Assembly (NCBI GenBank): GCA_936928855.1
Contig: CAKZHZ010000019.1
Span: 76,310 to 140,309, forward strand
DNA: 64,000 nucleotides
Origin: an uncultured Polycyclovorans sp.
Lineage (GTDB): Bacteria; Pseudomonadota; Gammaproteobacteria; Nevskiales; Nevskiaceae
Direction of reading: 5' to 3'
Shown here: positions 7,799 through 19,779 of the stretch, in pieces
Layout of the letters: every line of letters begins with the position of its first letter
How positions within the stretch are numbered: the stretch's first letter is position 1
Notes under the pieces: model-generated
Databases searched by the model: none
The model's input: the letters and a program-made list of their open reading frames with translations, nothing else
Told to the model about the DNA's origin: nothing
Translations under genes and position numbers: made by a program

Positions 7799-9844
7799 TC
7801 ACGCGCTGCTGGCGGACGAGGCGATCAGGCCATCGTGGCGCAGCAGCGCGTCCAGCGTTGGTGGGCGTCCGCGGAATGCCGTGAACAGCTCCAGTGCCGG
7901 GGCACTGCCACCGCGCGACAGCAGCGCATCCCGGAAGCGATGGCCGGTGTCGACGGCGAAACCGGATTCCTCGAATGCCGCAAAAGCATCGGCCGACAAC
8001 ACCTCGGCCCACTTGTAGCTGTAGTAACCGGCTGCGTAGCCGCCAGCGAAGATGTGGCTGAAGCTCCAGGGCATGCGATTGAACGCGGGAGGCTGCATCA
8101 GGGCCACTTCCGCGCGCACCGCCTCGAGTTGCTGCAGCAGGGCGTCGGTATCGTCGGGTGGCGCATCACGGTGCAGGCGCAGGTCGAACAGGGCGAATTC
8201 GATCTGCCGCAGTGTGGCCATGCCACTCTGCCAGCTGCGGGAGGCCTGGAGTTTGTCGATCAGGGTGTGCGGCAGGGCGTCGCCGGTCTGCCAGTGGCGG
8301 GCGAAGCGTTGCAGTGTGGGGGCGTGGTAGCACCAGTTCTCCATGAACTGGCTGGGGAGTTCCACGGCATCCCACTCCACGCCGTGAATGCCGGAGACGC
8401 TGGCCTCCTCCACCTGGGTCAGGAGGTGGTGCAGGCCGTGGCCGAACTCGTGAAACAGCGTCAGCACCTCGTCGTGGGTCAGCAGTGCCGGCTGGCCGGG
8501 GGCGGGCGGCGTGAAGTTGCCGACCAGATACGCGACCGGCAGCTGCAGCTGCCCGTCGATGCGCTGCCGTGTCAGGCACTCGTCCATCCAGGCGCCGCCG
8601 CGTTTGTGCGCCCGGGCATACGGGTCCAGATAGAACAGTCCGATCGGCTCGCCTGAAAGCGTTGACAGCGAGTAGACCGTCACGTCCTCGTGCCAGGTGG
8701 CGATGCCCTCCACCGCCGTGATGCGAACCCCATAGAGGGATTCGACCTGATCGAACATGCCCTGGATCACCTGCGGCGCCGGGAAGTAGGGCTTCAGGGC
8801 TTCGTCAGACAGTCCCAGCGTGGCATCGCGATAGCGTTCGCTGTAGTAGGCAACATCCCAGGGCTCCAGCCGATCCAGGCCATCCTGCGCATGCGCGTAA
8901 TCGCGCAAGGCCTCCAGCTCGGTTTCCGCACGTGCGCGTGCGCGTCGGGCGAGATCGGTCAGAAACTGCTCCACGGCCTCAGCGGAGTCCGCCATCTTGG
9001 TGGCCAGCGACAGCGCAGCATAGTGGGGGAAGCCGAGCAGCTCGGCTTCCTCACGACGCAGGCGGAGGATCTCGAGCATCGGGGGGCCGTTGTCGAACTG
9101 TCCGGCCTGCGGACCCTGGTCGGACGCACGGGTCGCGTAGGCGGTGTACAGCGACCGGCGTAACTCGCGGTCGTGGGCGTGGCTGATCACCGCGTCGAAG
9201 GAGGGGAAATCGAGGGTGATCCAGGCCCCGTCCAGATCCCGGTCTCGGGCCTTGGCCTCCGCGCTGGCGCGGGCGCCATCACTCATCCCGGACAGTCGGT
9301 TCGGGTCGGGAACGTGCAGGCCGTAGGCCTGGATCGCGTCCATCAGGTTCGACTCGAACTGCGACTGCAAGGTCGACAGGCGCAGCGAAATCGCCTTGTA
9401 GCGGGCCTTGTCCTGTTCGGGCAGGCCGATGCCCGACAGCCGGAAGTCACGCAGGGCATCTTCGACCACCTTGCGGCGTTCGGTGCTGAGCTGCGGGAAG
9501 TCAGGGCGCGCCGCGAGGGCCTGGTAGGCGCGGAACAGCGGCTCCGACTGCGACAACTCCAGGCTGTACTCGGTGATCTTCGGGAGGGCAGTGTTGTAGG
9601 CCTCGCGCCAGGCCGGGGTGCTGCATACCCCGAACAGGTGGGACAAGGGTCCCCAGGCCTGCCCCAGCGCGTTGTTCATCCGTTCCAGTGGTACCACCAG
9701 GGAATCCCAATCCGGCGACGTGAGACCCTCCAGTGTCTGCAACTGCTGGCGGTTCCCGGTCAGGACGGCGTCGAGTCGGGCCAGGACGCCGTCGGGCGTC
9801 AGGTTGGGAAAATCGGGGAGCGGCAGGGCGGCGCTGGGCATCAC
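7799..9844 (-). CDS. prlC: oligopeptidase A (M3 family)
   Basis: 681 aa, HEFGHGLHH zinc motif, and overall OpdA-like sequence. Confidence 0.9.
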   Translation of the reverse strand: MMPSAALPLPDFPNLTPDGVLARLDAVLTGNRQQLQTLEGLTSPDWDSLVVPLERMNNALGQAWGPLSHLFGVCSTPAWREAYNTALPKITEYSLELSQSEPLFRAYQALAARPDFPQLSTERRKVVEDALRDFRLSGIGLPEQDKARYKAISLRLSTLQSQFESNLMDAIQAYGLHVPDPNRLSGMSDGARASAEAKARDRDLDGAWITLDFPSFDAVISHAHDRELRRSLYTAYATRASDQGPQAGQFDNGPPMLEILRLRREEAELLGFPHYAALSLATKMADSAEAVEQFLTDLARRARARAETELEALRDYAHAQDGLDRLEPWDVAYYSERYRDATLGLSDEALKPYFPAPQVIQGMFDQVESLYGVRITAVEGIATWHEDVTVYSLSTLSGEPIGLFYLDPYARAHKRGGAWMDECLTRQRIDGQLQLPVAYLVGNFTPPAPGQPALLTHDEVLTLFHEFGHGLHHLLTQVEEASVSGIHGVEWDAVELPSQFMENWCYHAPTLQRFARHWQTGDALPHTLIDKLQASRSWQSGMATLRQIEFALFDLRLHRDAPPDDTDALLQQLEAVRAEVALMQPPAFNRMPWSFSHIFAGGYAAGYYSYKWAEVLSADAFAAFEESGFAVDTGHRFRDALLSRGGSAPALELFTAFRGRPPTLDALLRHDGLIASSASSA

Positions 9845-9902
9845 GGGGACTTTGGATGGGCTATCGGAGGGCTATGATCCCGCATCTGCGCACGGCGTGC
9901 GC

Positions 9903-10838
9903 TTACAGCAGTCCCCGTGCCTCCAGCGCCATGGCGGCAAAGACGAACCCCGCGAGGCCCGCCAGCAGCCACAGGGCGCCACCAATCCGGGTGCGACGTC
10001 CCAGATCGGCTTCCGACATCGTGGACAGCAGGAAGGGGCGCCGATCGGTGGGCTGGCACAGGACATGGAGATCCGGCATCACCGCCTGCTCAACGTGTCG
10101 TTGCCGAACGGCCTGGAGTGCCGCCTCGCGAGCCGCCTCCCACTCGCCGAGATCGATCTCGCCATCGCCGTTGGTATCGAAGCGCTGCAGCAACTGGCGG
10201 CGGTCGCGCTTCCAATCGGCCAGCAGCTCGCGCACATCGTCGCCTTCGCTGAAACTGTGCTGTCCGTGCTGGGTGCGGAACAGACCCACCGTGTAGAGGG
10301 GATCGCCGACTTTGACCAGCCGCTCGGTGTATCGGTATCCCCCGAAGGAAATCCATGGCGAGCGTTCCGGGATCTGCGCCGGGACCCGGCCGTGCCCCTG
10401 CCACCGGCGACGCAGGCTGGGATGGACCTTGGCTCCGTGGGGGTCGACCACGCAGTCGCCGCTGGGGTCCGTGAGCAGAAACAACTCGTCCGAGGTGGCG
10501 CGCGCAATGGTTTTCCATTCGCTGCGACTGCGACCGTTGACCATGCGTCGGTCGCGGCGTTCCACCTGATAGTCCCACCAGACGCAGCGCGCACGCGTGA
10601 GGGGGGAATAGATGGGAGGGCCTGGCAACAGTCCGGCATGACCTTCGAGTTCGACGTAGCCCTGCGCGGCACTGGCGATGCGGGAGGTGGGCAGGTCCTG
10701 CATCAGGCGCGCGTGCCGCAACTGGCGCAATCCCCATGCGGTGCCGCCGACGGCGAGCAGCAACGCCAGCCCGACCGCCAGCACGAAGCCCTCGATCGAG
10801 GTTGTCGCCAGCGAGGCGAACAGGGCCTGCGCGGCCAC
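9903..10838 (-). CDS. two-TM membrane protein with a canonical EF-hand (possibly GIDE-like), LemA partner
   Basis: N- and C-terminal hydrophobic helices, and a central soluble region with a perfect EF-hand loop (DTNGDGEIDLGEWE). A 3-nt gap separates it from the lemA stop. Confidence 0.6.
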   Translation of the reverse strand: MAAQALFASLATTSIEGFVLAVGLALLLAVGGTAWGLRQLRHARLMQDLPTSRIASAAQGYVELEGHAGLLPGPPIYSPLTRARCVWWDYQVERRDRRMVNGRSRSEWKTIARATSDELFLLTDPSGDCVVDPHGAKVHPSLRRRWQGHGRVPAQIPERSPWISFGGYRYTERLVKVGDPLYTVGLFRTQHGQHSFSEGDDVRELLADWKRDRRQLLQRFDTNGDGEIDLGEWEAAREAALQAVRQRHVEQAVMPDLHVLCQPTDRRPFLLSTMSEADLGRRTRIGGALWLLAGLAGFVFAAMALEARGLL

Positions 10839-10841
10839 CGG

Positions 10842-11414
10842 TCAGTTGCCGAACAGGGCCTTGAAGTTGGGGTCCTGGAGTTCCTCTGCGGTGAACTCCA
10901 GCAAGGTGGCGGGTGCGAACCCCAGCAGGCGGGCCACCACGACATCGGGGAACTGCTCGATCCGAACGTTGTTGAGGTTGACGCTCTCGTTGTAGAACTC
11001 GCGGCGATCGGAGATGGCGTTCTCAAGGGCCGTCACCCGTGACAACAGGGTCTGGATCGACTGGTTGGCCTTGAGTTCCGGATAGGCTTCCACGGTGGCC
11101 TGAATGCTGCCGAGTGCGGCCCGCATCATGCCTTCGCTTTTGCCCACGCCGACGACGTCGCCATTTTCCCGTGCCACCTGGGCGCCGCTACGGGCGGCCA
11201 TGACACGTTCCAGTGCGTCACGTTCGAACTGCATGTACTGCTTGCAGGTTTCCACCAGCTTGGGCAGCTCCTCGTGACGCTGCCGCAGCAGGACATCGAT
11301 GTTGCTCCAGCTCTTGGAAACGTTGTGCTTGAGGTTGACCAGGCCGTTGTAGATCACGATGCCGTACAGCAGTGCGATCCCGACGATCCCGAGGAGGATG
11401 TAGGTCACCATCCG
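10842..11414 (-). CDS. lemA: LemA family protein
   Basis: Start at MVTYILLGIVGIALLYG (TM helix), followed by a LemA-like sequence (NLKHNVSKSWSNIDVLLRQRHEELPKLVETCKQYMQFERDALERV...). The upstream in-frame extension is rejected. Confidence 0.8.
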   Translation of the reverse strand, partial: RMVTYILLGIVGIALLYGIVIYNGLVNLKHNVSKSWSNIDVLLRQRHEELPKLVETCKQYMQFERDALERVMAARSGAQVARENGDVVGVGKSEGMMRAALGSIQATVEAYPELKANQSIQTLLSRVTALENAISDRREFYNESVNLNNVRIEQFPDVVVARLLGFAPATLLEFTAEELQDPNFKALFGN

Positions 11415-11518
11415 TTTGACTCCCGTCCCTTGCCCGTTATGGGCCAAGCATGCGGGAATTGCGTGGGCCGCGCTACCATAGGCGCATGACACTCCAGTAT
11501 CTGACGAGGACCTGCGCC

Positions 11519-12412
11519 ATGCGCCCTCTGATCGTGGCAGCCTGCCTGTTGCTGACGGCCTGCGCCGGCACCACCGTGCTCAACACCTTGACGCCCGAGC
11601 GTGGTTACACCGTGGCGACCAACCAGCCCTACGATGGTGAACACGGGTTGCGTCTGGACATCTACACCCCGGATGACGCGCAAGCCGCGCCCGTGGTGGT
11701 GTTCTTCTATGGCGGACGCTGGAGTGAAGGCAGCAAGGATGACTACAAGTTCGTGGGGCAGGCGCTGGCTTCCCGCGGATTCGTCGCAGTGCTTGCCGAT
11801 TACCGGCTCTATCCCGATGTACGCTTCCCGACCTTTGTCGAGGATGCAGCGCGTGCCGTGGCCTGGACGCGGCAGCGCATCGACGGGTTTGGCGGCGACC
11901 CGGACAAGATGTTCGTCATGGGGCATTCCGCCGGCGCGCACATCGCTGCCATGCTGGCGCTCAATCCCGCGTATCTCGAAGCTGTCGCGCTCAAGCCGGA
12001 CGCGCTCAAGGGCATGATCGGTCTGGCCGGCGCCTACGATTTTCTGCCGATCACGGCGCCGGATCTACGCGATATCTTCGGGCCCCCGGAGGCATTCCAG
12101 AAAAGCCAGCCGATCTTTTTCGCCAATGGGCGCAATCCGCCCCTGCTGCTGGTGCATGGCGAAGATGATGAGGCGGTGTGGGTGAAGAACACCCGCAACC
12201 TCGCCAAGGCGGTTGCCCAGGCGGGCGGCGCGGTGGAAACGGTCATCTATCCGAAGATGAGTCACCGCTTTATCGTCGCCACGTTGGCGGCGCCGTTGCG
12301 CGGACAGTCCGATGTGCTCGACACCGTGGCCGAGTTCGTCAATCGGCGGGCCGCTGCTGCGCCGCGCCGTGACGGACCCGAGATCGAGACCACCCCGATC
12401 TACCTGCCCTGA
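11519..12412 (+). CDS. alpha/beta-hydrolase lipoprotein (esterase)
   Basis: Lipoprotein signal MRPLIVAACLLLTACAG, a GHSAGAH nucleophile elbow, and an HGEDD region. Transcribed divergently from lemA. Confidence 0.75.
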   Translation: MRPLIVAACLLLTACAGTTVLNTLTPERGYTVATNQPYDGEHGLRLDIYTPDDAQAAPVVVFFYGGRWSEGSKDDYKFVGQALASRGFVAVLADYRLYPDVRFPTFVEDAARAVAWTRQRIDGFGGDPDKMFVMGHSAGAHIAAMLALNPAYLEAVALKPDALKGMIGLAGAYDFLPITAPDLRDIFGPPEAFQKSQPIFFANGRNPPLLLVHGEDDEAVWVKNTRNLAKAVAQAGGAVETVIYPKMSHRFIVATLAAPLRGQSDVLDTVAEFVNRRAAAAPRRDGPEIETTPIYLP

Positions 12413-12483: not shown

Positions 12484-13233
12484 ATGACCCATAAACTTGT
12501 CCTTCTGCGCCACGGCCAGAGCCAGTGGAATCTCGAGAACCGCTTCACCGGATGGGTGGACGTGGACATCACGGAGCAGGGCGCGCATGAGGCGCAGACC
12601 GCCGGCCGTTTGATGCGCGACGAAGGGCTGGTCTTCGACGTCGCCCATACCTCGGTACTGAAGCGCGCGATCCGCACCTGCTGGACGGCGCTGGATGCGA
12701 TGGATCAACTGTGGGTGCCGACGCACAAGTCCTGGCGGCTCAACGAGCGTCATTACGGCGCCTTGCAGGGGCTGGACAAGGCAGAGACGACCGCCAAGCA
12801 CGGTGAGGCGCAAGTCAAGATCTGGCGCCGTTCCTACGATGTCCCGCCTCCGGCCATGGAAACGGCGGACCCGGGCCACCCGGTGCATGATCGCCGCTAC
12901 GGCACACTCGATCCCGCCGCCCTTCCGGGCACCGAGTCCCTGGCCACCACACTGGTGCGGGTGTTGCCCTATTGGCACGATCGCATCGCCCCGGACCTCA
13001 AGGCCGGACAGACCGTGCTCGTCACCGCGCATGGCAATTCGCTGCGGGCGCTGTACAAATACCTCAACCAGGTGTCCGATGACGCGATTCTGGAGGTGAA
13101 CATTCCCACCGGCATTCCGTTGCTGTTCGAGCTCGACGAGGCGCTGCGGGTTCGCGAGTTCCGCTACCTCGGAGATCCCGAGGCGGCCAAGCGTGCCGCC
13201 GAGGCGGTGGCCAATCAGGCCAAGAAGGGCTGA
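12484..13233 (+). CDS. gpmA: 2,3-bisphosphoglycerate-dependent phosphoglycerate mutase
   Basis: [12 protein letters not shown]...RHYG...[10 protein letters not shown], the canonical GpmA sequence. Confidence 0.95.
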
Positions 13234-13364
13234 ACGGCTGCTAAACACGGATCAATGACACGGTGGTGACATCGTGCATCGACTGAGCTACCTTCCGTCG
13301 GAACAACGTCGCCGCTCGTCCCCGGGCTGAAGCGGCGAACAGCGGTATACGACAGGGAGGAGTT

Positions 13365-15974
13365 GTGATGAAGACTGTGCGTTCGCCGGTTTGGACGGGT
13401 GCCCTCGGCCTGATGCTGGCCATGGGCCTTGGCGCTTGCAGCGGCAACAATGGTGGCGGTACGGCGCCGTCACCGACCCCGGCGACCACGCCGACGCCCG
13501 GGCCAACCGCCACGCCGGTGCCCACCCCCACGGTGGCGCCCACCCCCACGCCGAGTCCGACGGTGGGGCCAACGCCGACGCCAACGGTCAGCCCGACACC
13601 GACCACGAGCCCCACACCGACTACCAGTCCGACGCCGACGCCCACGCCGCCGCCGGGTGACGGTGGTTCGCCGCTGGATCTGCTCTTCGAACAGCTGGCG
13701 GAGGCCTGTACCGCGGACCCGCTTATCGAGCAGGACCCCACGCCGCTCTCCGCCTGCCTCGCCACCGGGCTGCAGGCCTTCTGCGATGCGGCGGATCCCG
13801 AGGGCGAAACACTGCCGATCTGTGGTGACGGCGGATTCACGCCGCCCACCAGCCCCGAGGATCTGCTGGCATTGCTGGCGCCCATCACGGATCAGATCGG
13901 TGAGTTCTGCACCGCAGATCCGTTGGTGCCGGACGATCCGACGCCGCTCAGCAGTTGCCTGGCGACGGGACTGGAGGCCTTCTGTGATGCCGCCGATCCC
14001 GAAGGCACGACCTTCCCGTTCTGCGGTGACGGTGAGTTCGAGCCGCCGACCAGCCCTGAGGACCTGCTGGCCCTGCTATCCCCGATTACCGATCAGATCA
14101 GCGAGTTCTGTACGGCGGAATCGCCCATCGGAACCGACCCGACCGGCCTGACCAACTGCCTGGCGACCGGGCTCGAAGCGTTCTGCGACGCCGCCGATCC
14201 CGAGGGCACCACCTTCCCGTTCTGCGGTGAAGGCGGAATCGAGCCGCCCGACAGCCCCGAAGACCTGCTGGCATTGCTGGCGCCGATCACCGAGGCCATT
14301 GAAACCTTCTGTACCGAGGCTTCGCCGATCGAAGAGGATCCCACCGGGCTCACCCGTTGCCTGGCCACCGGCCTGGCCCAGTTCTGCGCGCTGCCGGGTG
14401 CGGACCAAACGCCTATCTGTGGCGAGTTCACCCCGCCGACGGATCCGGAGGATCTGCTGCTGTTGCTGGCGCCGGTGACTGACGCGATCGCCATGTTCTG
14501 CGGAACCGAGGGCGGCATCGAAGGGGACCCCATCGGGCTCAGCAATTGCCTTGCAGCTGGGCTGGCTCAGTTCTGCCAGGCGCCGGGCGCGGATCAGCTG
14601 CCGATCTGCGGGGAGGGGGGGCTGGAGCCCCCTGACAGTCCCGAGGATCTGTTGGCGTTGCTGGCGCCGGTGACGGACGCCATCGGCGAGTTCTGCGGCG
14701 AGGACGGCGGGATTGACGGCGACCCGACCGGGTTCAGCAATTGCCTGGCTGCAGGGCTGGCCCAGTTCTGCCAGGCGCCCGGGGCCGATCAGCTGCCGTT
14801 CTGTGACGAGGGGGGCATCACGCCGCCGAGCGGACCGGAGGATCTGCTGGCACTGCTGGCGCCGCTCACCGATGCGATCGCCGAGTTCTGTGGCGAAGAG
14901 GGTGGCGTCGAGGGTGACCCCACCGGCCTGTCGAACTGCCTTGCGGCGGGCTTGGGGCAGTTCTGCCAGGCGCCGGGCGCGGATGCCCTGCCAGTTTGTG
15001 AAGACGGCGGTATCACGCCGCCGACCGATCCGGCTGACCTGTTGGCGTTGCTGGCACCGCTCACTGATGCGATCGGTGAATTCTGCGGCACTGAGGGTGG
15101 CATCGAGGGCGACCCCACCGGATTCTCCAACTGCCTCGCGGCGGGGCTGGCCCAGCTGTGTCAGGCCCCGGGTGCCGATCAACTGCCCTTCTGCGGCGAA
15201 GGGGGCATCACGCCGCCCACCAGTCCGGAGGACCTGCTGGCCCTGTTGGCACCCGTTACCGATGCGATTGGCGCGTTCTGCGGCGACGAGGGTGGCATCG
15301 ACGGTGACCCGACGGGTTTGTCGACGTGTCTGGCTGCGGGGCTGACGCAGTTCTGCGCAGCTCCGGGGGCCGACCAGCTGCCGTTCTGTGGCGAAGGGGG
15401 CATCAGTCCGCCGACAAGCCCTGAAGACCTGCTGGCCTTGCTGGCACCGGTGACGGAGGCCATTGAGACCTTCTGTACCGAGGCGCCGCTCATCCCCGGG
15501 GATCCCACGGGACTGAGCAGCTGCCTTGCCACCGGGCTGGCACAGTTCTGCCAAGCCCCAGGCGCGGATCAGCTGCCATTCTGTGATGCTGACGGAGGGG
15601 TGCCGGTGCCGTCCGACCCGGCTGACCTGCTGGCCTTGTTGGCCCCCGTGACCGAGGCCATCGCCGGGTTCTGCGACGCCGATCCCGCCATTCCACAGGA
15701 TCCGACCGGTCTCTCGAACTGCCTGACCGCCGGCCTTGAGACTTTCTGCGACACCCCAGGCGCGGATGCGCTTCCTGTATGTGGGGGTGACGGCGAGGTG
15801 CCTTCGCTGGATCCAAGTCTGCTCACCGATGCCCTCTGCGGTATTCCGGGGACCGAGGCACTGCCGCTGTGTACTGAGGGGGGTGTGCCCGAACTGGATC
15901 CGGATCTGCTGACCGGTGCGCTGTGCGCCATCCCCGGCGTCAGTCTGCTGCCTCTCTGCACCGCAGCACCCTGA
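13365..15974 (+). CDS. secreted lipoprotein with Pro/Thr linker and ~11 tandem 4-Cys repeats of ~66 aa (unrecognised repeat family)
   Basis: GGGAGGAG RBS; lipobox LGAC; PT-rich linker at aa 33-97; repeat consensus PEDLLALLAP(V/I)TDAIGEFCg.EGGi.GDPTGLSnCLAaGLaQFCqAPGADqLPfCgEGGi.PP(T/D)S; two short C-terminal degenerate copies. Confidence 0.85.
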   Translation: MMKTVRSPVWTGALGLMLAMGLGACSGNNGGGTAPSPTPATTPTPGPTATPVPTPTVAPTPTPSPTVGPTPTPTVSPTPTTSPTPTTSPTPTPTPPPGDGGSPLDLLFEQLAEACTADPLIEQDPTPLSACLATGLQAFCDAADPEGETLPICGDGGFTPPTSPEDLLALLAPITDQIGEFCTADPLVPDDPTPLSSCLATGLEAFCDAADPEGTTFPFCGDGEFEPPTSPEDLLALLSPITDQISEFCTAESPIGTDPTGLTNCLATGLEAFCDAADPEGTTFPFCGEGGIEPPDSPEDLLALLAPITEAIETFCTEASPIEEDPTGLTRCLATGLAQFCALPGADQTPICGEFTPPTDPEDLLLLLAPVTDAIAMFCGTEGGIEGDPIGLSNCLAAGLAQFCQAPGADQLPICGEGGLEPPDSPEDLLALLAPVTDAIGEFCGEDGGIDGDPTGFSNCLAAGLAQFCQAPGADQLPFCDEGGITPPSGPEDLLALLAPLTDAIAEFCGEEGGVEGDPTGLSNCLAAGLGQFCQAPGADALPVCEDGGITPPTDPADLLALLAPLTDAIGEFCGTEGGIEGDPTGFSNCLAAGLAQLCQAPGADQLPFCGEGGITPPTSPEDLLALLAPVTDAIGAFCGDEGGIDGDPTGLSTCLAAGLTQFCAAPGADQLPFCGEGGISPPTSPEDLLALLAPVTEAIETFCTEAPLIPGDPTGLSSCLATGLAQFCQAPGADQLPFCDADGGVPVPSDPADLLALLAPVTEAIAGFCDADPAIPQDPTGLSNCLTAGLETFCDTPGADALPVCGGDGEVPSLDPSLLTDALCGIPGTEALPLCTEGGVPELDPDLLTGALCAIPGVSLLPLCTAAP
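13668..15971 (+). repeat. in-frame tandem coding repeats (~198 nt period, ~11 units plus 2 short variants)
   Basis: Protein-level periodicity with four cysteines per unit. The DNA copies differ at many synonymous sites (ctgttggcgttgctggcg / ctgctggcactgctggcg / ctgctggccctgttggca). Confidence 0.85.
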
Positions 15975-15999
15975 GGTAGCGGACGGCGTCGGCGTCGTT

Positions 16000-16497
16000 T
16001 CAGGGGGTCAACCGGAGGCGACCGGTGAGGGCGCCGTCCGCATCCAGCAGGCCGTGGCGCTGCAGAAACCCTCGCGCGTCGTCACTATCCTGTTCGAACC
16101 ACGCGCGGGCACTGCCGAGGATGAAGTGGTAACCCCAGGCGTCCATGTCGGCGAGGAGGCGCTCACGCGAGTAGCCGGGTATGCGGTCGGCCAGCAGTGC
16201 CTGCAGGTAGCACACGGCATTCTCTTCGGTGTCGGTTCCGCAGGCGTCGGTGTCCACGATGGCACGCCGTTCTGGATCCATGCAGCGCCAGTGTCCCAGC
16301 TCGTGCAGCAGCGAGTGCACCGGGGTGTCCCGGCGGACGTAGAGACGCGCGCCGATGATCCCCGCTTCTGGCTCGCCCCAATAGCTCCCGGGGATGGCCT
16401 GACCCTCCTCCACCCACGTCAACTGCATGCCCTGATGCGCCACGAAAGCGGCAAGCGCCTCGGCGTTCAAGGCGGCGCAGGGCAGTACAGGGGGCAT
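16000..16497 (-). CDS. hypothetical protein with HExxH motif
   Basis: 165 aa containing SLLHELGHWRCMD. Convergent with the repeat lipoprotein across a 25-nt gap. Confidence 0.5.
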   Translation of the reverse strand: MPPVLPCAALNAEALAAFVAHQGMQLTWVEEGQAIPGSYWGEPEAGIIGARLYVRRDTPVHSLLHELGHWRCMDPERRAIVDTDACGTDTEENAVCYLQALLADRIPGYSRERLLADMDAWGYHFILGSARAWFEQDSDDARGFLQRHGLLDADGALTGRLRLTP

Positions 16498-16584
16498 GAT
16501 TTCCTACTGTGTGGCGGCGGAGGCTGCACTACGCTGATCAAAACCTGACGCTTGATTCAGATCTACAACAGGGGGAGAACAGCC

Positions 16585-19500
16585 ATGCGCCATTTTACGG
16601 GAGGGCGTCGCTGGGGTGTTGTGTTGGCGGCGACAGTCACCTTGGCGGCATGCGGTACCAGTGATCCGGTGGCAGGTGATCTCGGCAATCGGGATCCTGC
16701 TCCGGGCCAGGGCAACATCTTCATGAGCGCGATGCCGCCCGGGGCCAATGGCAACGCGGCAGGCGGCGTCGGGGCGCCGGCCGGGATACCGCCGTCGGCC
16801 ACCGTGTACCCCGACCATTACAACGATCAATTGGCGCTGTATGCGAACCTGGCCCATGCCCGGACGCCGCTGCAGCGCGGCAATTGCACGCCACCGGCGT
16901 CACTGGCCGCGCATGAACCCGCCTCGGATCAGGCCTGCAATTACTTCAAGAATGCGCCGATCGAGTTGCCGGATGCGCAAGCGGTCAGCGCACGGACGCT
17001 GAGTGCGCCGAACGGCGGCAGTGTCACCATCCGACGCGATGGATGGGGTGTGCCCTACGTGGATGGCAGCGATCGCGCGGCGGCCCAGTATGGGCTTGGT
17101 TATGCGGCTGCGGAGGATCGCCTCTGGCTGTTCGATGTGCTGCGGTACGCGGGACGAGGGCGCGCGTCGGAATATCTCGGCCCCTCGCAGACAACCTATG
17201 ACCTTGATCTGGAGTTTGGTTCGGCTTCCGCCTACAGCGAAGCGGAGATCGCCACTGTGCTGAGCCGCGCAGTGGAGAAGGTGGGGGAGCCCTACGGCTC
17301 GCAGTTTCTCAACGACACCGAAATGTTCGTCGCCGGCATGAACGCCTTTGTCGACTCGCTGACCGGTACCAACGTTAGCCGCATTCCGCCCGAGTACCTG
17401 ACACTGGGGCTGGCCGTGGGTGCCGAGTTGCCCAAGTTTCCGCCGGCCCCCTTTACGGTGAACGATATCGTTGCCAATGCCATTCTGATCCAGTCTGCGC
17501 TGGGCCTGGGCGGTGGCGGCGAGGCCAGCAATGTACGACTGCTGCAGGCGTTGGACGCCGGTATCGGTGGTGCGACGCGCACCTTGCCGGTGGCAGCCTG
17601 CGAAACCTGGCGGGACCTTCGCCATGCCAACGCCACCGACAGCTATCACACCGCCACCGGCACCTTCGACACGCAGTCGGGGTTCTTCAGTGAGGCGTGC
17701 CCCTTGGCGCTGGCCGAAGGGGCGGTGATCTGGGATGCCGGCAGCTACCGGGGGCTGGCTTTGGTGGGGACCGAAAGTGCCGGGCTGTTGGTGCCCGATA
17801 TCCCCGGGATTCTCAACGATCTGCAGCGCATCCTCGGCGGACTGCTGCCAGGCAATGCCCTGCAAATGGCACAGACCGCACGCATTCCCCTGCGCAGGAC
17901 GGCGGAGCAGACACTGTTGGCGCTCAACGATGCGCCGGGAACCGCCCTTGATGCGCTGCTGGCGTCGCTGGGCATGCCGAGCTCCACGTCGAACTGGATT
18001 GCGGTGAATGCGGACCAGACCCAGTCCGGCCACCCGATCCTGGTGGGCGGGCCGCAGACCGGCTACTTCAATCCGCAGCTGCTGTGGGAGGCGGCGGTGA
18101 TCTCTCGTGGCGGCACAGCGATGGATCTGGCCGCGCGAGGGATCTCCACGGTCAATCTGCCCTATATCGTGATCGGACACGGCCTCGACTTCGCCTGGGT
18201 GCCGACGTCTGCGGGCTCCGATTTCACCGATACCCGCGTGTCGAAGATGTGCAATCTGGATGGCTCGCCACCGTCACGCGACGATGGCGACGGTGATGGG
18301 TTTCCGGACGCGGATGGCTACCTTTTCAAAGGCGAGTGCAAGCGCTTCTACACCCGCGTCGATACCTGGACCGCGACGCCGACGGTCGCCAGTATCGCCC
18401 TCGGTGGCGGCCCGACGCCGGAAACGGTCAGCCGCTATGTGATCCGTACGCATTACGGTCCGGTGTTCGCCACCGCGACGGTCAGTGGCGAGCCTGTGGC
18501 GATCTCCACCCAGCGATCCACATTCCTGGCCGATGTCGACACCGCCATTCCGTTCGGCATCCTCACCGCGCAGGGAGTGGACATGGACCACACCCGATTC
18601 AAAAAGCTGTTCAACAGCATGACGGCGACCTTCAACTGGCTGTACGTCGACGAGCAGGATGTGGCCTACATCCAGTCCGGACTGTACCCGGTACGTCATC
18701 CCGGGCACATGCCGGAGCTGCCGGTCTGGGGTGATGGGCGATTCGAGTGGCAGAACGACCAGCAACTGCCAGCGTCGTTCTTCACCGATTTTGGCGGGGA
18801 TGGCAATGCCGGCGCTGACAGCTGGCCGTCGCGCAACCAGCCGGTAGCCCAGGACGCGCTGGGGTATTTCGAGTGGCCGGGGTATCTGCCCCTGACGGAT
18901 CATGTGCAGGACACCAATCCGCCCACGGGGTTTCTCGCCAACTGGAACAACTCCGGCGCGTTCGGATGGACGGCCCCTGACGGGGACGGTTCCTATGGGC
19001 CCACGCATCGGGTGCTGAACCTGTCGAAACGCCTCGAGGCCTTTCGCGATACCGGGCGCAAGCATGATCTCGCCACCATGATCGAGGTGGCGGGTGATGC
19101 GGCCTATACCGATACCCGAGGGCTCGATGTCCTGCCCCTGATGCTGCGGGTACTGGCGTCGGAGCCGATGACGTCCGAACAGGAGGCTGTTGCCAACCTG
19201 ATGCAGGCATGGATGGACGATGGATCCGGTCACTGGATCGACGATACCCCGGGGCTGGGCGCGATGCGGCGGGACCGGGATAGGGACGGAGCCTACGATC
19301 ACCGCAGCGCTGTCGTGCTGATGGATGCCTGGTACCAGCGCATGCTGCCGCGCGTAACGGTGCAGCTCGATCAGTTGGTGGCCAACGGCGGCACGGCGCT
19401 GCAGGGTCGGTTCGATGCGCCGGGGGCGGTGGGCTCAGCGTTTCAGAGTGGCTGGTTCCAGCACATGAAGCGTATGTTCGGCATGGCGCTCGGGGATGCG

Positions 19501-19779
19501 GTCCCGCCGTATCGACAGTTGCGCTGTGCGGGCGCGGATGGTCTGCCGGCCTGTCGTGCCGCAGTGACGGAGGCCCTGGACCTTGCGCTCACGGATCTTG
19601 GCGGCCTGGCGATGATGACGCAGTGGGATGGCAGCAGCCTGTACGGCGGTGACACAGTGGAGGCCCACGACGCGGTGGTGCACACCAACTTCGGATTCCT
19701 GCCCATCGCGTCGATTCACTGGATCAACCGCCCGACGTTTCATCAAGCGGCCGAGATTCAGCAGTCTCGCGACCGCTGA
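16585..19779 (+). CDS. penicillin amidase / acyl-homoserine-lactone acylase family (Ntn hydrolase) lipoprotein
   Basis: Lipobox LAACG. An SSTSNWIAVNAD...GGPQTGYFNPQLLWE junction matches the S-N nucleophile start of the beta subunit. About 1064 aa, with Asp/Gly-rich inserts (DDGDGDGFPDADG). Confidence 0.8.
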   Translation: MRHFTGGRRWGVVLAATVTLAACGTSDPVAGDLGNRDPAPGQGNIFMSAMPPGANGNAAGGVGAPAGIPPSATVYPDHYNDQLALYANLAHARTPLQRGNCTPPASLAAHEPASDQACNYFKNAPIELPDAQAVSARTLSAPNGGSVTIRRDGWGVPYVDGSDRAAAQYGLGYAAAEDRLWLFDVLRYAGRGRASEYLGPSQTTYDLDLEFGSASAYSEAEIATVLSRAVEKVGEPYGSQFLNDTEMFVAGMNAFVDSLTGTNVSRIPPEYLTLGLAVGAELPKFPPAPFTVNDIVANAILIQSALGLGGGGEASNVRLLQALDAGIGGATRTLPVAACETWRDLRHANATDSYHTATGTFDTQSGFFSEACPLALAEGAVIWDAGSYRGLALVGTESAGLLVPDIPGILNDLQRILGGLLPGNALQMAQTARIPLRRTAEQTLLALNDAPGTALDALLASLGMPSSTSNWIAVNADQTQSGHPILVGGPQTGYFNPQLLWEAAVISRGGTAMDLAARGISTVNLPYIVIGHGLDFAWVPTSAGSDFTDTRVSKMCNLDGSPPSRDDGDGDGFPDADGYLFKGECKRFYTRVDTWTATPTVASIALGGGPTPETVSRYVIRTHYGPVFATATVSGEPVAISTQRSTFLADVDTAIPFGILTAQGVDMDHTRFKKLFNSMTATFNWLYVDEQDVAYIQSGLYPVRHPGHMPELPVWGDGRFEWQNDQQLPASFFTDFGGDGNAGADSWPSRNQPVAQDALGYFEWPGYLPLTDHVQDTNPPTGFLANWNNSGAFGWTAPDGDGSYGPTHRVLNLSKRLEAFRDTGRKHDLATMIEVAGDAAYTDTRGLDVLPLMLRVLASEPMTSEQEAVANLMQAWMDDGSGHWIDDTPGLGAMRRDRDRDGAYDHRSAVVLMDAWYQRMLPRVTVQLDQLVANGGTALQGRFDAPGAVGSAFQSGWFQHMKRMFGMALGDAVPPYRQLRCAGADGLPACRAAVTEALDLALTDLGGLAMMTQWDGSSLYGGDTVEAHDAVVHTNFGFLPIASIHWINRPTFHQAAEIQQSRDR

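Follow-up and report, generated by a model that had tools for sequence, protein, structure and literature searches.

What kind of protein is built of tandem four-cysteine units behind a lipoprotein signal, and what might it do for the cell that exports it? This question is raised by an open reading frame (ORF) of 869 amino acids (aa), listed as starting at a GTG codon (13365..15974 on the forward strand), in a stretch of 64,000 nucleotides, hereafter the window, that belongs to an uncultured Polycyclovorans sp. of the Nevskiales (assembly GCA_936928855.1, contig CAKZHZ010000019.1). That the ORF encodes a real lipoprotein with a new repeat of the disulfide type is very probable, and its four-Cys unit of 65 aa represents a genuinely undescribed domain family, absent from current libraries. 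According to a more specific reading, to which we assign a probability of roughly 45%, the product would be an elongated, polyanionic, disulfide-stapled chain tethered to the outer membrane, where it would act as a spacer, a tether or an adhesin of low specificity. Sorting to the outer membrane, the extended shape, the disulfide pairing and the function are what we infer from the features described below, and the role as a spacer or adhesin, taken by itself, is put forward tentatively.

The predicted product contains 49 Cys residues, of which one belongs to the lipobox, 44 are spread over 11 tandem units (61-67 aa each, together aa 102-814), and four lie in two C-terminal half units (Table 1). 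Dissection of the Cys pattern and alignment of the units bear out the 11 repeats and two short C-terminal variants of the original prediction, a note made by a model from the DNA and its translated ORFs. Successive Cys residues lie 16, 9 and 11 residues apart (13 instead of 11 in units 1-3), and the next unit follows at 27-30; the fixed spacing of four Cys per unit had been recognized correctly, the distances given for it (20, 15, 7 and 15) had not. When the 11 units are aligned with MAFFT (A1), identity averages 73% per column, and 15 columns, those of the four Cys among them, do not vary (P2, D4, L5, L6, C20, D29, P30, C36, L37, G40, L41, C45, P48, P54 and C56). The segment DLLALLAP, previously described as invariant, turns out to vary, since ALLAP is missing from unit 1 and unit 5 reads LLLLAP. 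Two types of unit can be told apart (13754-15585), with C1-TADP..DPTP-C2 and C3-DAADPEG-C4 in units 1-3, and C1-GxEGGIxGDPTG-C2 and C3-QAPGADQ-C4 in units 5-9; units 4, 10 and 11 are hybrids. Tandem Repeats Finder reports periods of 195, 201 and 390 bp (scores 612-1167), and the last of these, which corresponds to two units, hints at duplication of units in blocks. The composition of the mature chain is extreme, with 127 Asp and Glu residues, one Arg, one Met and neither Lys, His, Trp nor Tyr; about 15% of its residues are acidic, 6% are Cys and 14% are Pro, and its net charge is about -126.

Relatives of this protein are very few. A homology search with the whole protein, covering 5.8 billion clusters, was swamped by matches to the Pro/Thr-rich linker, and its only real matches, P0001 and P0002, are both the window gene itself. 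The contig of P0001 (L001) matches the DNA of the window at 100% identity, except that part of the linker is missing (L001 981-992), and the scaffold of P0002 (L002) has an N-gap inside the gene and has lost exactly two units in frame (7844-7853, about 8900). As L001 and L002 share the synteny of the window, the three copies come from the same population. A scan of metagenomes of the Joint Genome Institute returned only L087, a chimeric contig of coverage 2 that carries the window gene (junction from 2284 onward). Because L001, L002 and L087 elsewhere differ little or not at all from the window, variation in repeat number is inseparable from assembly collapse, and their differences in length could be either true length alleles or the result of short-read repeat collapse.

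Two distant homologues came from an exhaustive HMMER search with a unit profile against 1.84 billion representatives at 50% identity (E<=0.001). Three of its 7 matches are real, namely P0002, P0057 and P0060, while the other four were rejected as unrelated repetitive proteins without the Cys pattern. P0057 (452 aa) scores 194 bits and shares 42% identity with the window protein along 358 aa, and P0060 (248 aa) was found with an E value of 4e-8 (hhalign probability 60%, E 8.5e-5); the former certainly belongs to the family and the latter probably does. In P0057, a lipobox LSAC is followed by a Pro/Ser/Thr linker, by six four-Cys units and by a terminal two-Cys module ending in LLPCTN. The lipobox of P0060 is LAAC, its linker is short and Ala/Gly-rich, and about three degenerate units, one of them with an extra Cys pair, precede a terminal module ending in PACTD. 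Both terminal modules end in C-T-x and are of the kind seen in half unit B of the window protein. In every unit of all three, C2 and C3 are exactly 9 residues apart, with C1-C2 distances of 8-16 and C3-C4 distances of 8-14, and the only family-wide invariants are the four Cys and Leu41, no other polar residue being conserved. P0057 is also acidic, devoid of basic residues, and shows the same composition exclusions as the window protein. The three proteins fit a single family definition, which comprises a lipobox, a linker of low complexity (rich in Pro, Thr and Ser in both the window protein and P0057), at least three units of the form C-x(7-15)-C-x8-C-x(7-12)-C, and a terminal half unit ending in C-T-x(1-3).

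The family is extremely rare, as the 1.84 billion representatives contain only three of its clusters at 50% identity. No relative was found in the GTDB species-representative genomes, which were scanned with five units, or among viral contigs. A search with the repeat region of P0057 returned only P0057 itself and P0002, and a word-indexed search with a wider unit profile (A2) gave zero matches, known members being missed as well.

Comparison with domain libraries agrees with the earlier claim of an unrecognized repeat family, since a single unit matched no family in Pfam, NCBIfam or the PDB. The only Pfam match of the protein, PF18398 (CLIP_SPH_mas), reaches 39.8 bits summed from five partial stretches at profile positions 6-28 of 33, and the precomputed annotation flags it as faint. 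Against a gathering cut-off of 26 bits, one unit reaches 16.0 and a piece of two units 23.7, and the type-1 unit (units 1-3) gives no match; the score of P0057 is 8.7 bits (E=3.2), and P0060 does not match. Clip domains, which are modules of arthropod proteins, contain six Cys in three disulfides and are attached to serine-protease or serine-protease-like domains. No protease domain was found in the window protein, P0057 or P0060. The likeness consists of a C-x9-C-x10/11-C spacing over 23 of the 33 profile positions, and identity with CLIP_SPH_mas was rejected as a coincidence of Cys spacing that is sub-threshold per unit and not retained in the homologues. Scanning NCBIfam at E<=10 gave only noise of at most 13.6 bits, with no assignment to TIGR04201, the Cys-rich repeat of Myxococcales, and neither a profile match to the Sel1-like repeat PF08238 nor its repeat length of 36-44 aa was found.

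Selection on the repeats speaks for a functional product. Between the five equal-length units 5-9, the ratio of nonsynonymous to synonymous substitution (dN/dS, Nei-Gojobori method) is 0.09-0.25, with dN of 0.10-0.22 and a saturated dS of 0.66-1.78. The low ratio together with the high dS indicates that the repeat copies are old and under purifying selection as protein. The G+C contents at the three codon positions (GC1/2/3 of 0.69/0.585/0.78) are similar to those of the neighbouring genes, and a 492-aa ORF on the opposite strand (14076-15554) has GC1 above GC3, a non-coding pattern. By these signs the ORF is a real gene, selected at the protein level. Its true start is more likely the ATG at 13368, which would give 868 aa, than the GTG at 13365, because the Shine-Dalgarno sequence GGAGG is spaced 7 rather than 4 nt from it and because the metagenome gene call P0001 begins with MKTVRS, that is, at this ATG. 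The description of a single gene immediately after gpmA with a ribosome-binding site of its own also holds, as the upstream gene (12484-13233) is gpmA by its match to NF010713 (397.6 bits, cut-off 305) and GGAGG is in place. No promoter or terminator was found in a scan of 13150-16100, and transcription of its own and read-through from gpmA are both possible.

How the protein would be anchored can be read from its N-terminus. The lipoprotein signal ending in LGAC, as originally proposed, conforms to the lipobox rule for Lgt/LspA substrates (as in PROSITE PS51257): Lys or Arg in the n-region, an uncharged h-region, [LIVMFWSTAG]2-[LIVMFYSTAGCQ]-[AGS]-C, and the Cys at position 15-35. The N-terminus MKTVRSPVWTGALGLMLAMGLGAC fits this rule, as do those of P0057 and P0060. 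The repeat protein is a predicted lipoprotein, with acylation and cleavage by LspA read from the lipobox, and the Cys to be lipid-modified (codon 13437-13439) is Cys24 or Cys25 depending on the start; counted from the GTG it is residue 25, the last of the motif MGLGAC. With Ser, not Asp, at +2, the lipoprotein would probably be sorted to the outer membrane, by analogy with the Lol rule of E. coli. It continues with the Pro/Thr linker, whose presence had been predicted correctly and whose length is 76 aa instead of about 65; repeats of period 18 were found in it by Tandem Repeats Finder at 13479-13553 and 13589-13639.

Modelling of one unit and of a three-unit segment had been proposed as a check, and it was informative for the former. 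AlphaFold2, run on one unit with the 11-row alignment, predicts two helices at positions 2-20 and 33-44 (mean predicted local distance difference test score, pLDDT, 73). The three-unit run was uninformative; the two-helix pattern recurs in it at a pLDDT of 38.7, and it was not used. On the single-unit model, helix 1 terminates at C1 (position 20), the opening turn of helix 2 contains C2 (36), C3 (45) comes just after that helix, and C4 (56) stands beyond the PGADxLP loop. Exported lipoproteins meet the oxidizing periplasm with its Dsb systems, and disulfides are the default expectation there. Disulfides are favoured over a metal site, and we propose a pairing of C1 with C2 and of C3 with C4. 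A bond between C2 and C3 would be excluded because these residues are always 9 apart on one predicted helix. The half units hold only a helix and a C3-x10-C4 loop, which argues for C3-C4 pairing in the full units and thus, by elimination, for C1-C2 pairing. The combination of a fixed C2-C3 distance with a variable C1-C2 distance fits a rigid helix and a variable C1-C2 loop, and this loop is indeed the most variable one in length and sequence.

From these elements the following picture may be assembled. The mature chain of 844 aa would consist of a Pro/Thr stalk of 76 aa, eleven helix-loop-helix mini-domains of about 65 aa separated by short GEGGxxPPTSP linkers, and two C-terminal half modules. 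Each mini-domain would comprise two amphipathic helices and two disulfide-closed loops, with the C1-C2 bond closing the variable acidic loop and the C3-C4 bond spanning the PGADxLP loop. The outcome would be a long, oxidatively stapled, strongly polyanionic filament tethered to the outer membrane, which would most probably have a structural role, within the envelope or on the cell surface, as a spacer, a tether or a low-specificity adhesin. An adhesin arranged like beads on a string, as originally suggested, is still plausible. That no polar residue beyond the Cys is conserved family-wide speaks for a scaffold and against catalysis or the binding of a specific ligand. Activity as an enzyme or the specific binding of a metal is less probable.

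Several points weigh against this picture. The +2 sorting rule is borrowed from E. coli, and exposure of the lipoprotein at the surface is conjectural. With a pLDDT of 38.7, the three-unit model is no guide to the geometry between units, and the disulfide map was deduced rather than observed. Other roles of an acidic scaffold would fit the findings as well as a spacer or adhesin does. Finally, all copies of the exact gene come from one population, and its evolutionary support consists of two distant homologues only.

Among the alternatives, two survive about equally well, both of them unlikely. According to the first, the chain would be a cation-binding polyanion, whose acidic loops (GEDGGIDGDPTG, PEDLL, PGADQ) would bind Ca2+ or Mg2+ weakly, or mineral or positively charged surfaces. 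The ratio of 127 acidic residues to one basic residue in the mature chain would suit such a function, as would the Gly/Asp-rich C1-C2 loop of units 5-9 and the acidic character of P0057. However, the acidic positions are not kept across the family, D29 and D4 being invariant only within the window protein and giving way to other residues in P0057 and P0060, and the loop differs in units 1-4, where it is Pro-rich. Moreover, neither RTX, HemolysinCabind, EF-hand, thrombospondin-3 nor other Ca-binding families matched even at E<=10, and tandem GGxGxDxUx nonapeptides of the RTX kind are absent.

The second alternative is a rigid superhelical alpha/alpha solenoid of the Sel1-like or Hcp-like kind, in which the units would pack against one another to form a disulfide-locked scaffold for the binding of proteins or peptides instead of separate beads. 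The two helices and the conserved hydrophobic faces of each unit would be compatible with such an architecture, and disulfides tether successive helical repeats in the Hcp proteins of Helicobacter (PMC3851747). HcpB and HcpC, which are built of Sel1-like repeats (SLR; PF08238), are exported proteins made of tandem helix-turn-helix repeats with regularly spaced disulfides (PMC3851747). The window protein shows no sequence or profile similarity to them. Their unit has 36-44 aa and one disulfide that links adjacent repeats, whereas the unit considered here has 65 aa and four Cys, and the window protein differs further by its long loops, its Pro-rich linkers between units, its extreme polyanionic character, and its lipobox with a Pro/Thr stalk.

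A second point of comparison is the myxobacterial protein TraA (Cys-rich repeat TIGR04201), which is found at the cell surface and in which tandem Cys-rich repeats are accompanied by a sorting tag and by PA14 (PMC3325183). The window protein has neither PA14 nor the MYXO-CTERM tag of TraA and is anchored instead by its predicted N-terminal lipidation. Its closest likeness is to the disulfide-stapled repeats of the Hcp/SLR proteins, and also to the Cys-rich region of TraA, but by the profile comparisons it is a member of neither group. Chlamydial OmcA and OmcB are Cys-rich envelope lipoproteins thought to play a structural role through disulfides. Neither Pfam nor NCBIfam gave a match of the window protein to them. 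They are not known to have the 65-aa tandem layout, and their cross-links join different molecules, in contrast with the pairing within units proposed for the window protein. The diatom frustulins and pleuralins, with their ACR and PSCD domains, are tandem acidic Cys/Pro-rich repeats of the cell wall and offer a lead only, being eukaryotic and having other motifs; their layout occurs in 0 of the 7 matches of the 1.84-billion-protein search.

Less likely still is a function of the Cys residues as thiolates, which in reduced form would bind Cu(I), Zn or Cd or would cycle between thiol and disulfide, with about 11-13 sites per chain. The mature chain has 48 Cys, and among polar positions only the four Cys per unit are invariant throughout the family. 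Against such a function, motifs CxxC, CxC and CC, typical of a metallothionein-like cluster, are absent from the window protein, P0057 and P0060, whose smallest Cys-Cys spacing is 9 (8 in P0060). In addition, there is no His and a single Met, the half units with two Cys are insufficient for a Cys4 site, an exported lipoprotein would face the oxidizing periplasm, metal-homeostasis genes are absent nearby in all three homologue contexts, and metallothionein and Csp families gave no match in the Pfam and NCBIfam scans. The earlier proposal of two disulfides or a metal site in each module thereby shifts in favour of the disulfides, on account of the missing CxxC and CxC motifs, the lack of His and the half units, and the suggestion of metal or redox buffering received no positive support.

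It appears improbable that the unit is a new fold with a specific activity, either a hydrophobin-like, disulfide-stapled amphipathic module or a new Cys4 metal site. The Polycyclovorans group degrades hydrocarbons, and if the unit were hydrophobin-like, it could help this marine relative of Polycyclovorans to wet hydrophobic or algal surfaces or to adhere to them; in both cases a polyanion free of Lys, His, Tyr and Trp would be an adaptation against extracellular proteases or oxidants. A non-functional ORF, arising by chance in GC-rich repetitive DNA or as an assembly artefact, is effectively refuted, for although high-GC DNA yields long spurious frames such as the 492-aa antisense ORF, and repeat and linker lengths vary among the metagenome copies, dN/dS is about 0.1 between units, codon-position GC is right in the sense frame only, a Shine-Dalgarno sequence and a lipobox are present, the Cys register is retained in a 42%-identical homologue, and identical sequence was obtained in three independent assemblies.

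Envelope proteins made of Cys-stapled tandem repeats are a familiar kind of object, and the new part is the domain family itself. Neither gene context, homology nor fold yielded a lead to its function. With its four invariant Cys and its fixed C2-x8-C3 register as hallmarks, this clean and well-delimited repeat module would be added to the catalogue of bacterial envelope domains and could be deposited as a new family. Its unusual composition would make it a convenient model of how repeat proteins fold oxidatively, or of scaffolds that resist proteases. The value of the family is limited by its extreme rarity, by the absence of conserved gene partners and by the uncultured state of the organisms.

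Table 1. Features of the repeat lipoprotein gene (window coordinates; residues counted from the GTG codon).
Feature	Coordinates	Strand	Residues (aa)	Description	Evidence
Shine-Dalgarno sequence	13356..13360	+		GGAGG	7 nt before ATG 13368, 4 nt before GTG 13365
Lipoprotein signal peptide	13365..13439	+		lipobox L-G-A-C; +2 residue Ser	lipobox regex match, K/R in n-region
Linker	13440..13667	+	26-101	Pro/Thr-rich, low complexity, 76 aa	translation; 18-bp imperfect tandem repeats
Unit 1	13668..13850	+	102-162	61 aa, helix 1 shortened, T-type loops	Cys dissection, alignment
Unit 2	13851..14051	+	163-229	67 aa, C3-C4 spacing 13	Cys dissection, alignment
Unit 3	14052..14252	+	230-296	67 aa, C3-C4 spacing 13	Cys dissection, alignment
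Unit 4	14253..14441	+	297-359	63 aa	Cys dissection, alignment
Unit 5	14442..14636	+	360-424	65 aa	Cys dissection, alignment, dN/dS
Unit 6	14637..14831	+	425-489	65 aa, unit modelled by AlphaFold2	alignment, model
Unit 7	14832..15026	+	490-554	65 aa	alignment; units 7-8 missing from metagenome scaffold L002
Unit 8	15027..15221	+	555-619	65 aa	Cys dissection, alignment
Unit 9	15222..15416	+	620-684	65 aa	Cys dissection, alignment
Unit 10	15417..15614	+	685-750	66 aa	Cys dissection, alignment
Unit 11	15615..15806	+	751-814	64 aa	Cys dissection, alignment
Half unit A	15807..15893	+	815-843	helix-like LDPSLLTDAL, then C-x10-C (C3-C4-type loop, PG...LP.C)	Cys dissection
Half unit B	15894..15974	+	844-869	LDPDLLTGALC-x10-CTAAP and stop codon	Cys dissection

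The surroundings of the gene are miscellaneous. Downstream of it, a convergent gene (16000-16497 on the reverse strand) encodes a conserved 165-aa protein that matches no Pfam or NCBIfam family, and a 1075-aa protein of the penicillin-amidase family is encoded next (16552-19779, forward strand). The predicted functions of the neighbours (LemA, GIDE, M3 peptidase, esterase, gpmA, penicillin-amidase family and TonB-dependent receptor) are unrelated to one another, and the genes of the window protein, P0057 and P0060 lie in unrelated neighbourhoods. Because these neighbourhoods differ, there is no conserved operon, and assignment of a function by gene association was rejected in view of the differing homologue contexts and the miscellaneous neighbours in the window. 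Lipobox-like N-termini are seen in the penicillin-amidase-family protein (..TVTLAAC) and in a BD-FAE/esterase (11450-12412, forward strand; ..LLLTAC), so that several genes adjoining the repeat gene may encode envelope lipoproteins. No tRNA, tmRNA or Rfam family was found at the gathering threshold in the whole 64-kb window.

The pair formed by gpmA and the gene of the 165-aa protein is syntenic across the Nevskiales (L004-L073), with a gap of 0 to about 6 kb; the two genes abut in many of these genomes, and elsewhere unrelated cargo lies between them. The gap looks like a hot spot of gene insertion, and because its cargo differs between genomes, the repeat gene sits at a variable site. That the organism belongs to the Nevskiales is borne out by the 165-aa protein, which has 74% identity to that of a Polycyclovorans metagenome-assembled genome, and by gpmA, whose identity within the order is about 80%. 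At least 490 relatives of the 165-aa protein occur in GTDB genomes of the Nevskiales, Xanthomonadales, Chromatiales and other orders, so that it is widespread although unannotated. One example of cargo is provided by ORFs that begin with MITLD(L/V)xHTT(I/T)YRY(V/A)NPV in L025, L035 and L054; L046 contains a copy that has diverged further. The sequence looks like the N-terminal domain of transglutaminases.

The gene of P0060 (L085 8936-13536; GCA_053528435.1, JAIVPL010000003.1) adjoins a cluster on the opposite strand that comprises an SrpI-like encapsulin, a gene of the aminotransferase class V / cysteine-desulfurase family, a rhodanese and a helix-turn-helix regulator, a proximity that is probably coincidental. 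In the window, a 474-aa ORF (9618-11042, forward strand) runs antisense to the GIDE and LemA genes on the opposite strand.

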